Counted from the first letter of the stretch, positions 5,383 through 23,030 are shown. The stretch: DNA of 64,000 bases from an uncultured Alphaproteobacteria bacterium (GCA_963781165.1 CAWADZ010000004.1:33975-97974), one strand, 5' to 3'. Notes: a model not told the origin generated them from the sequence alone. Made by a program: numbers and translations.

Positions 5383-5400
5383 TTGTCATAACTGAGTCAA
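5383..5400 (+). promoter_or_regulatory. Pho-box-like direct repeat upstream of the PhoB-like regulator
   Basis: TTGTCAT-AACT-GAGTCAA, 11-bp period, versus consensus CTGTCAT-N4-CTGTCAY. Confidence 0.5.
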
Positions 5401-5445
5401 ATTTGCCCGCCACCTGAGAAACTCTTGAACAGGGTTTCCAGCTAC

Positions 5446-19338: not shown

Positions 19339-21537
19339 ATGGCCAGCAATCCTGATAGCACCGCCCTCAATGCCGCGAATGACGGGTCGGGGATAGACGC
19401 ACTGTCCGCCGAAGACCGCTACTTCAACCGCGAATTGTCATGGCTCGCTTTCAACGACCGTGTGCTGGAGGAAGCCAACAACACCGCCTACCCGCTGCTT
19501 GAACGGCTCCGGTTCTTGTCCATCTCGGGCAGCAATCTCGATGAATTCATGATGATCCGTGTCGCTGGCCTTGCCGGGCAAGTGCGCAGCGGTGTGACGG
19601 AAACCAGTATCGACGGGCGCACTCCGCGCCAGCAGGTTGCCGCCGTAACCGCGCGCGTGCGTGAGCTGGAGGCGAAACAGCAGGAAGCGCTCGGAAGGCT
19701 GCATCCCTTGCTGGAGGCCGAAGGCATCCACATTGCCGGTGAAGATCGGATCGGGGACGCGGCAGAGGAATGGCTGCGGGACTATTTCATCAATCACATC
19801 ATGCCGGTCATCACGCCGCAGGCGCTTGATCCCGGACATCCATTTCCCTTTGTCGCGAATGGCGGCATCGGCGCGCTTTTCAATGTGCGCCGCAACAGCG
19901 ATTCCAGCCAGCTTGTGGAGATGGTCCTCATTCCTGCAGCGCTGCCCCGCTTCGTGCGTATCCCGGCAGAAGCTGCTGGTGACGAGGCCATCTATGTCGC
20001 GATTGAGCGAGTGGTCTGCCGCTATGGCCAGCTCATCTTCCCCGGATTTACCGTGCAGGGCGACGGCGTTTTCCGCGTGCTGCGCGACAGCGATATTGAA
20101 ATCGAGGAAGAGGCGGAAGATCTTGTCCGCCTGTTCCGCAGCGCCATCCAGCGCCGCCGACGCGGGCAAGTCATCATGCTGGAGATAGACGAGAGCTTCG
20201 ACCCGGAGGCAGAGGAACTCCTTCGCGACAAGCTGGCACTGGAACAGGCTCTGGTCACCACGACCGAAGGGATGCTGGGTATTTCCGGACTGGAAGAGGT
20301 GGTTGGTGAAGACCGGCCAGATCTCAAGTTCACATCCTACAGTCCGCGCTACCCCGAACGCGTTCTCGAACATGACGGCGATGCCTTTGCCGCGATCAGG
20401 GGCAAGGACATTATCGTTCACCACCCCTACGAAAGCTTCGAAGTGGTGGTCGATTTCCTGCGGCAGGCAGCGGCTGACCCCAAAGTCGTCTCGATCAAGC
20501 AGACGCTATACCGCGCAGGCAACCAGCCCACCTTGATCAACGCGCTGATCGAGGCAGCAGAGGCTGGCAAATCGGTCACCGCCGTGGTCGAACTGAAGGC
20601 CCGTTTCGACGAAGAACAGAACCTGAAATGGGCTGGCGAGCTGGAGCGCGCCGGGGTGCAGGTGATTTACGGTTTCATCGACATGAAGACCCATGCCAAG
20701 GTCAGCATGGTGGTGCGTGAAGAAGAAGGCGTTTTCCGCACCTACTGCCATTTCGGCACCGGCAATTACCATCCTGTCACCGCCAGGATTTACACCGACC
20801 TTTCCTATTTCACCGCCAATCCGGCACTCGGCCGAGATGCGGCGAAGCTGTTCAACTTCGTCACCGGCTATGTCGAGCCGCAGGGCATGGAGTATCTCTC
20901 CATCAGCCCGTTGACGCTTTACGACCGGATCATCGCTGATATCGATCATGAAATTGCCATGGCACGCGCGGGTAAGCCTGCCGCGATCTGGGCAAAGATG
21001 AATTCCATCACCGAGAAGAGCATCATCGACAAACTGTATGAGGCAAGTCAGGCAGGTGTTGAAATCATGCTGGTCGTGCGCGGCATTTGCTGCCTGCGCC
21101 CCGGCGTGCCCGGACTGTCCGACAATATCATCGTCAAATCCATCATCGGCCGCTTTCTGGAACACAGCCGCATTTACGCCTTTGCCAATGGCGAAGCGAT
21201 GCCGAGCAACAAGGCCAAGGTATACATCTCCAGCGCGGATATGATGGAGCGCAATTTGCACCGCCGCGTGGAAACGCTGGTGCCCGTGACCAACACCACG
21301 GTGCACGATCAGGTGCTGGACCAGGTGCTGCTCGCCAATCTGATCGATGTGCAGCAAAGCTGGCTGCTCGATGGCGAGACCGGCCATTATGAGCGCATTG
21401 GCGACGAGGATTCGCTTGAGCCGAGCGGCTTCAACTGCCACGAATATTTCATGACCAACCCATCACTAAGCGGGCGCGGCGAAGCGCTCAAGGATAGCGG
21501 CGTGCCCAAACTCACATTGCGCAAACAAACTCCGTGA
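19339..21537 (+). CDS. ppk1: Polyphosphate kinase 1
   Basis: YFNRELSWLAFN, LERLRFLSI, HHPYESF, IKQTLYR, ELKARFDE, THAKV, HFGTGNY, GRFLEHSR. Confidence 0.97.
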   Translation: MASNPDSTALNAANDGSGIDALSAEDRYFNRELSWLAFNDRVLEEANNTAYPLLERLRFLSISGSNLDEFMMIRVAGLAGQVRSGVTETSIDGRTPRQQVAAVTARVRELEAKQQEALGRLHPLLEAEGIHIAGEDRIGDAAEEWLRDYFINHIMPVITPQALDPGHPFPFVANGGIGALFNVRRNSDSSQLVEMVLIPAALPRFVRIPAEAAGDEAIYVAIERVVCRYGQLIFPGFTVQGDGVFRVLRDSDIEIEEEAEDLVRLFRSAIQRRRRGQVIMLEIDESFDPEAEELLRDKLALEQALVTTTEGMLGISGLEEVVGEDRPDLKFTSYSPRYPERVLEHDGDAFAAIRGKDIIVHHPYESFEVVVDFLRQAAADPKVVSIKQTLYRAGNQPTLINALIEAAEAGKSVTAVVELKARFDEEQNLKWAGELERAGVQVIYGFIDMKTHAKVSMVVREEEGVFRTYCHFGTGNYHPVTARIYTDLSYFTANPALGRDAAKLFNFVTGYVEPQGMEYLSISPLTLYDRIIADIDHEIAMARAGKPAAIWAKMNSITEKSIIDKLYEASQAGVEIMLVVRGICCLRPGVPGLSDNIIVKSIIGRFLEHSRIYAFANGEAMPSNKAKVYISSADMMERNLHRRVETLVPVTNTTVHDQVLDQVLLANLIDVQQSWLLDGETGHYERIGDEDSLEPSGFNCHEYFMTNPSLSGRGEALKDSGVPKLTLRKQTP

Positions 21538-23030
21538 GCGGTTCGAACGGAAAGCGCAGCAATGCGAAAATCGAAGGGCCGGACCGCGCGGTCATCGACA
21601 TTGGCTCCAACACTGTGCGCCTCGTCGTCTACTCTGGTCCGCCCCGCGCGCCCAATGTGTGGCTGAATGAAAAAGTCACTGCCCGGCTGGGCCGCGATCT
21701 GGCGGTCACCGGTGAAATCCCTGAAGAGGCCGAGCAAATGGCCCTCAGCGGATTGAAACGCTTCTCCGCCATAGTGGACGATCTGGGCGTGACGGATGTC
21801 GCAGTCGTTGCCACTGCTGCCGCGCGCGAAGCCAGTAACGGTGCAAAATTCGTCTCGCATGTGCGCGATCTCGGGCTCCAGCCGCGCGTTCTGTCAGGTG
21901 TTGAAGAGGCAACCTCTTCCGCGTTCGGCGTCATTGGCGCGTTTCCTGGCGCAAAAGGTATCGTTGCCGATCTGGGCGGCGGCAGCCTGGAACTTATCGC
22001 GATCGAAGACGGGCAATGCCATGACGGCATCAGCCTGCCGCTCGGCACACTTCGGCTTCCCGCGCTGCGCGAAGCAGGCGAAGAGAATTTCCGCGCCGCA
22101 GTACAGTCGGAACTGGCCAAGGCGGGCTGGGCGAAAATGCAGGGCGGACCGCTGTATCTGGTCGGCGGCACATGGCGCGCAATGGCCAGTTTTGCCATGC
22201 ATGAAGACAACTACCCGCTGACAGATCCGCAGGCCTTCTGCCTGACGAGGGAAGAGGCCGAAAAAATTGCCCGTAAGCTCGCCAATTCTGAACCGGAAGA
22301 GCTGACGTCCATTTCGGGCATCTCCTCGAACAGGGCCTCGGGCTTGCCCGATGCTGCCGCGATGCTGGACGTCATGCTGCAAGAATTGCAGCCGGATGCG
22401 CTGGTCATTTCAGCATGGGGTATTCGCGAAGGGCTGCTGTTTGAACGGCTGACTGATATTGCACGCGGTCAAGATCCGCTGCTTTCGGCCATCACCCATT
22501 TCACCACGCCGCGCGGCGCGGATATCATGAACGCCACCCTGATTGCAGCATGGACGGCGGAGGCGGTGGACGGGCGCAATCGCGGCAGCGAACGCATCCG
22601 GCTCGCCGCCACAATGCTCACCCAGGCCGCAGCGCGGATTGAACCGAACATGCGCCTGTCACATGCAACCGACTGGGCGCTGGAAAAGCGCTGGGTTGGC
22701 CTTGATCACACAGGGCGCGCCATGATGGCGCAATGTTTGCGGGCGAGCAGTGGTCAGCCAAAGCTGGTGGAAGACTACTTGCGCATGGCGACAGAAAAGC
22801 AGCTTCACCGCGGATCTGCATGGGGCCTTGCCAACCGGCTGTGCCGCAAGATCGGCGCAGGCACGCGGATATCGCTCCGCAGCAGTTCGCTACGGCGGGA
22901 AGGCGATACGCTGGTGCTGCGCTTTGATGAAAGCCGCTCGTACATGATGGCCGACACGGTAGAGCGTGAACTTGCCGCCCTCGCCGAATGGCTCGGCCTG
23001 GAATATGAAATGATGGTTGGAGGAATTTAG
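21534..23030 (+). CDS. ppx: Exopolyphosphatase Ppx/GppA family
   Basis: VIDIGSNTVRLVV, ATAAAREA, DLGGGSLEL; GTGA overlap with the ppk1 stop. Confidence 0.93.
   Translation: MSGSNGKRSNAKIEGPDRAVIDIGSNTVRLVVYSGPPRAPNVWLNEKVTARLGRDLAVTGEIPEEAEQMALSGLKRFSAIVDDLGVTDVAVVATAAAREASNGAKFVSHVRDLGLQPRVLSGVEEATSSAFGVIGAFPGAKGIVADLGGGSLELIAIEDGQCHDGISLPLGTLRLPALREAGEENFRAAVQSELAKAGWAKMQGGPLYLVGGTWRAMASFAMHEDNYPLTDPQAFCLTREEAEKIARKLANSEPEELTSISGISSNRASGLPDAAAMLDVMLQELQPDALVISAWGIREGLLFERLTDIARGQDPLLSAITHFTTPRGADIMNATLIAAWTAEAVDGRNRGSERIRLAATMLTQAAARIEPNMRLSHATDWALEKRWVGLDHTGRAMMAQCLRASSGQPKLVEDYLRMATEKQLHRGSAWGLANRLCRKIGAGTRISLRSSSLRREGDTLVLRFDESRSYMMADTVERELAALAEWLGLEYEMMVGGI

Follow-up and report, generated by a model that had tools for sequence, protein, structure and literature searches.

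Secretion systems under phosphate (Pho) control have precedents. The PhoB regulon of Caulobacter takes in a type II secretion system as well as TonB receptors (PMC11208175), and virG of Agrobacterium is induced by phosphate starvation, according to the passage of PMC4086400 that cites Winans 1990. In 14 Erythrobacter genomes, a single type IV secretion system (T4SS) copy was described in each strain, co-evolving with the genome and with roles proposed by analogy only; a second, horizontally acquired copy was reported in some genomes (PMC4919336). Here, we analyse a stretch of 64,000 nucleotides (the window; 60% G+C) from an uncultured member of the Alphaproteobacteria (GCA_963781165.1, CAWADZ010000004.1:33975-97974), whose nearest relative among the genomes of the collection is Erythrobacter alti (VirB4 92% identical). 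The window carries a virB operon (11376-19279, plus strand) between the genes of a PhoB-like regulator, a TonB-dependent receptor and a surface lipoprotein on one side and the polyphosphate genes ppk1 and ppx on the other. The Erythrobacteraceae examined all carry a chromosomal T4SS, and its virB4 gene is used as a phylogenetic marker in published comparisons.

Judging from sequence comparison, the region from 5383 to 23030 is probably a phosphate island of the Erythrobacteraceae chromosome that is passed on vertically, with the T4SS operon as a predicted member of the Pho regulon. Four promoters of the region carry TGTCAY repeats with an 11-bp period, namely those of the regulator, of the lipoprotein-receptor operon and of the virB operon, and an element on the side of a small tetratricopeptide repeat (TPR) gene. 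All four sites had been proposed as Pho-box-like in a first-pass annotation of this DNA and were recovered at the same positions. Direct TGTCAY repeats at this distance are the pattern to which a winged-helix dimer of the PhoB type binds. A conserved -10-like block follows them after about 9-10 nt, a placement that suggests a class II activator site replacing the -35 element. At low phosphate, a PhoB-type regulator is predicted to turn on its own paralogue, the beta-helix lipoprotein with its receptor, and the T4SS together. The virB transcript would start just past position 11350 and, with no terminator after virB11, would probably continue into ppk1-ppx in at least some genomes.

The virB promoter (11321-11350, plus strand) consists of the Pho-type box TTGTCAT-GCCG-CTGTCAT (11321-11338) and a conserved TGTAAGCA block (11343-11350), followed by a Shine-Dalgarno sequence and the ATGATTCT start of virB1. 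The two 7-bp direct repeats of the box have the 11-bp period of Pho boxes. The first-pass annotation had placed this site one mismatch from consensus, and this holds: relative to the E. coli consensus CTGTCAT-N4-CTGTCAT, it is the sole match with at most one mismatch in the 64-kb window. For the pattern CTGTCAY-N5-TGTCAY, again at no more than one mismatch, the window contains two matches versus 0.20 expected by shuffling, and 0 of 100 shuffles reach two. Readings of the site as a CRP-like TGTGA-N6-TCACA motif, a LexA or CtrA site or a vir box were ruled out, the repeats being direct at 11 bp and not palindromic.

A scan with VirB4 provided 80 loci for comparison, all of them on Erythrobacteraceae-type chromosomes or in metagenome-assembled genomes (MAGs), with VirB4 80-92% identical; three extra contigs (L082, L083 and L084) were retrieved via PhoU homologues. 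The gene order regulator-receptor-lipoprotein, virB, ppk1-ppx is retained in most of the 80 loci. TGTCA[C/T]-N5-TGTCAT stands at a fixed position of the virB promoter in 64-65 of the approximately 71 loci with enough upstream sequence, and both TGTCA cores are invariant among the loci that bear the box. Information content amounts to 1.83 bit per specified box position; the 40 nt ahead of the box have 0.12 bit, and the 12 nt behind it, which include the TGTAAGCA block, 1.05 bit. Since the flanks have diverged to near randomness, the boxes can be regarded as genuine footprints. A matrix built from the virB boxes yields 78 matches in 1.69 Mb of related DNA, 65 of them at the virB promoter. The other 13 fall on three regulator promoters, five lipoprotein/TPR intergenic sites, one pstS promoter (L035, a Croceibacterium MAG), two sites upstream of the Citromicrobium virB region and two inside ppk1.

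Taken by itself, the Pho-type direct repeat in the regulator promoter, TTGTCAT-AACT-GAGTCAA (5383-5400, plus strand), is ordinary: it has four mismatches, and 34 window sites are equally good. In related loci, GTCAY-N6-GTCAH is found in 47 out of 47 cases, at a median of 61 nt before the regulator ATG and with a background of 0.007 per 160 nt. The proximal Pho-type promoter of the lipoprotein-receptor operon (10625-10679, minus strand) comprises the 11-bp-period repeats GATTCAC-AAAG-GTGTCAC-ACGC-ACGCAAA-CAAA-GTGTCAC (10640-10679), then 9 nt and the -10-like element CTAATG. Here, 44 of 51 loci have TGTCAY followed after 8-10 nt by YTA, at 75-93 nt ahead of the lipoprotein start (background 0.0028 per 150 nt); 9 nt on from the TGTCAC, the sequence reads CTAATG or CCTAGC. 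Like the regulator site, the lipoprotein site pairs one strong with one weak half. Conservation in orthologous loci, on which the first-pass annotation had made its proposal depend, is thus seen at the virB, regulator and lipoprotein promoters.

The fourth site (10783-10800) is part of a composite element, CTGCAAC-AAAA-CTGTCAT-AT-TGTCAC (10774-10800, minus strand), which is conserved in most loci and overlaps the -35 of the divergent TPR gene. A second promoter, or an operator of the small gene, are candidate roles. A relative of the element, TGTCAT-AAAAGCGCAAT, lies in the pstS promoter of L082. Between 10640 and 10788 lie five TGTCAY hexamers, all of them on the minus strand, from which the lipoprotein operon is read; the whole window has 77, counting both strands. 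Across the lipoprotein/TPR intergenic region, TGTCAY is 18 times commoner on the lipoprotein strand than on the opposite one (2.82 vs 0.16 per 330 nt).

The connection with phosphate is provided by loci of the same family that carry pst genes. In L035 (positions 1-9400), the slot that the receptor module has in the window is taken, beside virB, by pstS-pstC-pstA-pstB-phoU, a divergent porin-like gene and a second pstS. Its pstS box reads GTGTCAC-AAAA-CTGTCAT, and its porin box GTTACAC-ATAA-CTGTCAC is followed after 9 nt by CCTAGA. The same slot is taken in the Croceibacterium-like L083 (2579-15131), where virB is followed by pstS2, a porin gene divergent from pstSCAB-phoU, the regulator and ppk1-ppx; the pstS box is GTGTCAC-AAAA-CTGTCAC. 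In L082, a receptor gene is divergent from pstSCAB-phoU. The canonical order phoR-pstSCAB-phoU-phoB, with the pstS box AGTCAT-CGAGA-CGTCAC, was found in L084, which probably belongs to another Sphingomonadales family. In E. coli MG1655, the proximal pstS box is CTTACAT-ATAA-CTGTCAC, followed after 10 nt by TATTTT, and the geometry of weak half, strong half, about 10 nt and -10-like element is common to this promoter, the L035 porin promoter and the lipoprotein promoter of the window. As the same boxes occur at the pst and porin promoters of the family, the island motif is the mark of genuine phosphate-uptake genes in Erythrobacteraceae.

Within the family, named PhoU matches come from Croceibacterium, Porphyrobacter and Altericroceibacterium only. 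None in the match list is from Erythrobacter, Aurantiacibacter or Qipengyuania, the genera that dominate the match lists of the regulator and the lipoprotein. The only further taxon name is Sphingosinicella, of another Sphingomonadales family, in a cluster of about 69% identity that is distinct from that of L084. The pst-phoU genes may be absent from many genera of Erythrobacteraceae.

On the other side of the T4SS, ppk1 (19339-21537, plus strand) encodes all four PPK1 domains and overlaps by 4 nt with ppx (21534-23030, plus strand), which encodes a Ppx-GppA domain. The terminator scan of the 59-bp virB11-ppk1 spacer (19280-19338, plus strand) detected no terminator-like site, in good agreement with the gap noted in the first-pass annotation. 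In 37 loci, ppk1 was mapped 3' of virB11, with gaps of -4 to 157 nt (median 94, mostly 60-150 nt). The ppk1 start of Croceibacterium xixiisoli overlaps the virB11 stop by 4 nt (L032, 16663-16666), which indicates that the genes form a single operon there. Conservation of the spacer is poor, some clades have half-site-like or promoter-like elements in it, and in L083 ppk1-ppx adjoins the regulator instead of following virB11. Co-transcription of ppk1 by read-through from virB appears plausible.

The virB operon was delimited by Pfam and NCBIfam matches, the list of open reading frames (ORFs) and synteny in the 80 loci. It consists of virB1 with an SLT domain (11376-12014), virB2 (12017-12313), virB3 (12326-12607), virB4 (12629-15070), virB6 (approximately 15112-16275), virB9 (16272-17072), virB10 (approximately 17086-18246) and virB11 (approximately 18254-19279), all on the plus strand. 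VirB2, B3, B4, B6, B9, B10 and B11 each have a Pfam or NCBIfam match and form a P-type T4SS core; VirB4 (TIGR00929, 735.8 bits) and VirB11 (TIGR02788, 298.6 bits) both score above their cut-offs. No VirB5, VirB7 or VirB8 was found in the operon or among the large ORFs of the window, with no VirB8 domain even at a Pfam E-value of up to 5, and neither VirD4 nor a relaxase was found in the operon or among the ORFs of at least 500 aa in the window. The description as a minimal T4SS in the first-pass annotation is therefore apt. The end of virB6 overlaps the start of virB9 (16272-16275) with no ORF between, so that the genes of VirB7 and VirB8, which usually lie there, find no space. The C-terminal tail of VirB6 comprises about 100 aa of low complexity, rich in Ala, Ser and Thr.

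The full set of eight virB genes is unbroken and in conserved order in about 70 genomes, and virB1 is present in 75 loci. VirB4 (80-92% across genera) is better conserved than the neighbouring ppx or receptor genes. The nearest plasmid-borne VirB4 is 53% identical and comes from a Sphingomonas aerolata plasmid, which has VirB8; other plasmid copies reach at most 42%. By these sequence comparisons, the T4SS behaves as a vertically inherited system of the core chromosome. The contig CAVUCI010000008.1 carries two VirB4 loci, L054 and L058, and L054, which has no neighbouring virB2, virB3 or virB6 matches, is probably a second, horizontally acquired copy as described in the literature.

Judged by the lack of coupling protein and relaxase in the operon and among the large window ORFs, the T4SS is not conjugative. 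It most likely acts on DNA or on a substrate of the periplasm or cell surface, or else works as a pilus. An assignment to the ComB-type DNA-uptake systems was rejected: VirB11 and VirB1 are present, an equivalent of VirB8 is absent, and the ComB10 model scores 89.7 bits (cut-off 300) versus 197.6 bits for VirB10.

The operon on the minus strand begins with a 526-aa surface lipoprotein (8981-10561; lipobox LALAAC), followed by the receptor (6167-8881), which belongs to the Xanthomonas/Caulobacter-type subfamily (partial TIGR01782) and is identified as a TonB-dependent receptor by its plug (PF07715) and barrel (PF00593). The receptor is syntenic with the lipoprotein in 51 loci. AlphaFold2 models the lipoprotein as a right-handed parallel beta-helix (pLDDT 84.9, pTM 0.86). 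By Foldseek, the model resembles tailspikes and enzymes of the pectate or alginate type only weakly, and there is no Pfam, NCBIfam or PDB sequence match. The protein is one of a very large family of surface proteins, of which some are fused to cadherin or PKD domains, and its distant relatives bear adhesion-type domains only. A role as phosphatase or nuclease finds no support in sequence or structure matches; one UniRef entry is named 'Phosphatase', on a basis that is unknown. A phosphorus function of the lipoprotein, which the first-pass annotation had envisaged, is thus not borne out, and a generic surface beta-helix is left. Homologues carry the precomputed Pfam accession PF28492. The 5' leader of the operon (10562-10624, minus strand) is unusually conserved across orthologues. 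It comprises a GUCGCGA-loop-UCGCGAC hairpin, then GAUUCUCGG-UUUUUU-GAGGGGACC and the GUG start. Rfam gave no match to it, and a consensus fold predicted with alifold was not convincing (-1.2 kcal/mol).

Between the two operons lies the gene of the small secreted TPR protein (10849-11217, plus strand; 122 aa, Sec signal peptide, Pfam TPR matches). Its transcript is ended by an intrinsic terminator with a 12-bp stem followed by TTTTGTTATT (11272-11300, plus strand), ahead of the virB promoter. A conserved orthologue stands directly upstream of virB1 in lipoprotein-bearing loci, and Citromicrobium has a divergent copy in L044, a locus without the receptor module, so that the TPR protein appears to travel with the T4SS. 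The regulator-receptor-lipoprotein module is absent from about 18 loci that retain the T4SS and is therefore separable from it. Module and T4SS count as distinct units, with the same type of control predicted for both. The phosphate-island interpretation of the first-pass annotation stands as far as the conserved boxes, the motif shared with pstS and porin genes and the linkage to phosphate genes are concerned; its further proposal that T4SS, receptor and lipoprotein may form one scavenging machine is not supported. For DNA import or the killing of neighbouring cells, evidence was found neither for nor against.

The regulator (5446-6126, plus strand) is an OmpR/PhoB-family protein with a Pfam Trans_reg_C match and a partial Response_reg match, indicating a degenerate receiver. 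PhoB (TIGR02154) is its best NCBIfam match, beginning at residue 47, with 126.8 bits against a cut-off of 296.2; it fails the curated equivalog score. Identity is 35% to the canonical PhoB of the sphingomonad L084 and 30% to E. coli PhoB. Among 120 orthologues, the equivalent of Asp53 is retained in 116 and that of Trp54 is also kept; Thr83 is replaced by Leu in all 120, Lys105 by Gly or Ala, and the acidic pair is lost. These losses make phosphorylation unlikely, and with the phospho-acceptor pocket incomplete throughout, the earlier label of a pseudo-PhoB is appropriate. On the DNA-binding side, T194, V197, R201, R203, T217 and Y223, all DNA-contact positions of PhoB, are invariant in the family, and three other contact positions carry the fixed changes H198W, R200K and R219H, the last affecting the minor-groove residue of the wing. 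In L035 and L083, the regulator is convergent to phoU and adjacent to it, i.e. in the position of phoB. No phoR or phoB was found next to pst in L035, L082 or L083. The homology search with the regulator gave orthologues only, and the searched literature contains no study of a member of this family.

Which protein reads the boxes is a close call between canonical PhoB, towards which we lean slightly, and the PhoB paralogue of the island, which is probably phosphorylation-incompetent. A bolder scenario, for which we see a rather low probability, is that many Erythrobacteraceae swapped PhoR-PhoB for this phosphorylation-independent, autoregulated paralogue. It would drive a re-wired Pho regulon whose most strongly conserved target is a T4SS without VirB8 and VirD4 that takes a direct part in acquiring phosphorus. 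Candidate roles of the T4SS would then be the uptake of extracellular DNA, or the export or display of the secreted TPR protein or the beta-helix lipoprotein. The absence of phoR and phoB beside pst in three family members, the regulator in phoB position next to phoU (L035, L083), the lack of PhoU matches named Erythrobacter or Aurantiacibacter, and the changed wing residue together with the G+C-rich virB spacer are all consistent with it.

Several observations weigh against the assignment of the island to the Pho regulon. The 80 loci represent one family, so that the counts are not independent events, though the flanks have diverged to near randomness. The spacer of the virB box (11328-11331 and orthologous positions) is about 80% G+C, unlike the A/T-rich spacers of the pst boxes (AAAA, ATAA) and of the proximal lipoprotein box (CAAA/GAAA); in the pst and E. 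coli boxes, the A/T-rich spacer is the site contacted by the PhoB wing. The conserved block begins only 4 nt past the virB box, and just its GCA triplet lies at +10 to +12, which renders the -10 assignment uncertain. The box is degenerate in L035, L064, L072, L075 and L079, and also in L083, where a terminator-like hairpin separates pstS2 from virB1. In L035, virB1 directly follows pstS2, and a reading of this arrangement as virB joined to a Pho promoter is ambiguous given L083. Apart from its promoter, the lipoprotein has no phosphorus-related feature. A canonical phoB or phoR was not detected by tblastn in any Erythrobacteraceae locus recovered, a search over all loci and not over whole genomes. 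Among the sequencing runs that contain window sequence, 10 are DNA or metagenome runs and none is an RNA run. Many PhoB sites of E. coli are described as transcriptionally inert (PMC10294691).

Some of these features would also fit a regulon of purely local nature, in which the boxes are read solely by the atypical regulator in response to a non-phosphate signal and resemble Pho boxes through shared ancestry of the DNA-binding domain. The regulator is conserved beside the module and has a box on its own promoter, suggestive of autoregulation; the three fixed changes at DNA-contact positions and the unusual G+C-rich virB spacer would fit a reader other than PhoB. In Tsuneonella, moreover, L072 has lost the regulator module together with the virB box, while L043 keeps both, and four loci in total have lost both. 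We nevertheless regard this explanation as unlikely, because the virB box is kept in 13 of the 18 loci without the regulator within 10 kb, pstS and a porin gene have the same motif before them in L035 and L083, two loci in which the regulator adjoins phoU, and ppk1-ppx flanks the island. The hexamers could also belong, as -35 or UP-like elements and not as activator sites, to the core of promoters read by a housekeeping sigma factor, and the island be constitutively expressed. TGTCAC does occupy the expected -35 position, TTGCAA-like hexamers stand alongside it, and a simple sigma-70 scan takes GTGACA at 10662, on the opposite strand, as -35-like. Ordinary -35 elements are less conserved across genera, though, and would explain neither why the element is repeated directly, at exactly 11 bp and without variation in either copy, nor why it recurs in four island promoters and in pst promoters while it is nearly absent from the remainder of the 1.69 Mb examined; constitutive expression is very improbable on these grounds.

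It is hardly credible, finally, that the T4SS is the decaying remnant of an integrated conjugative element which came to lie beside phosphate genes by accident. VirB5, B7, B8, VirD4 and relaxase are indeed all missing from the operon and the window ORFs searched, and second, horizontally acquired copies exist in some genomes (PMC4919336; L054 and L058). Against decay stand the eight intact genes, syntenic in about 70 genomes with a VirB4 conserved beyond ppx and the receptor, and the surroundings in the 64-kb window, which are housekeeping genes with no integrase, relaxase or repeat boundaries. Membership of the T4SS operon in the Pho regulon of a phosphate island remains our preferred reading. 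Based on the conserved boxes, the motif shared with pstS and porin genes and the linkage to phosphate genes, it is a well-founded prediction that phosphorus limitation induces the T4SS together with the receptor-lipoprotein operon and the regulator.

The conserved Pho-type box on the virB promoter would be the first testable clue to the purpose of this T4SS, with phosphate starvation as the induction condition. Together with the position between genes of a Pho-type transporter and those of polyphosphate metabolism, it connects a secretion machine with nutrient physiology and not with conjugation or virulence. If true, the prediction would add a type IV system to the Pho regulon, supply a naturally occurring T4SS that works in the absence of VirB8 and VirD4, and show the place of a pseudo-receiver PhoB paralogue in the phosphate control of abundant marine heterotrophs.

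The remainder of the 64-kb window consists of housekeeping genes, and an Rfam scan of 5000-23600 at E-values of up to 1 gave no match. Upstream of the regulator, a gene of the tryptophan-halogenase family (3739-5334, plus strand) encodes a flavoprotein; it adjoins TonB-receptor-like ORFs and is conserved in the closest relatives only. A DksA/TraR-family zinc-finger protein is encoded straight after ppx (23145-23468, plus strand). The minus strand of 23534-28661 carries a second TonB-dependent receptor, followed by two TadE and one TadG/VWA pilus-assembly genes. Further downstream, three TGTCAC hexamers within 90 nt (38312-38399) are located at the start of a CAAX-protease-like gene (38394-39353).

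In comparison with known systems, the island shares with the Pho regulon promoters of E. coli pstS and of Caulobacter the two TGTCAY-containing 7-mers at an 11-bp period, and a weak upstream and strong proximal half followed after about 10 nt by a -10-like element. It differs from them in the G+C-rich spacer of the virB box and in its regulator, which may be a pseudo-receiver paralogue instead of PhoB. Like the PhoB regulon of Caulobacter, the predicted regulon combines an outer-membrane receptor with a secretion system, but of type IV and not of type II. No paper in the searched literature was found to connect PhoB with a T4SS of the Sphingomonadales or Erythrobacteraceae. The vir system of Agrobacterium is similar in that a VirB-type T4SS is tied to phosphate limitation via a Pho-type element, which for the island is a prediction. 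There, the link is indirect via virG, and the system is plasmid-borne, complete (VirB1-11/D4) and dedicated to T-DNA delivery; here, the box lies on the virB promoter itself, and the system belongs to the chromosomal core genome and has no B5, B7, B8 or D4.

Bordetella Ptl, Brucella VirB and Helicobacter ComB resemble the island in having no VirD4 beside the operon, which fits a periplasm-derived substrate or DNA uptake. All three retain a VirB8 homologue, unlike the island T4SS, and ComB is without VirB11 and VirB1, both of which are present here. With HP1043, ChxR and GlnR, atypical OmpR/PhoB-family regulators with degenerate receivers, the island regulator shares a winged-helix output domain and a receiver without the residues needed for phosphorylation. 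It is set apart from them by the retained equivalents of Asp53 and Trp54, by its closest similarity to PhoB and by its location inside an island of phosphate genes.

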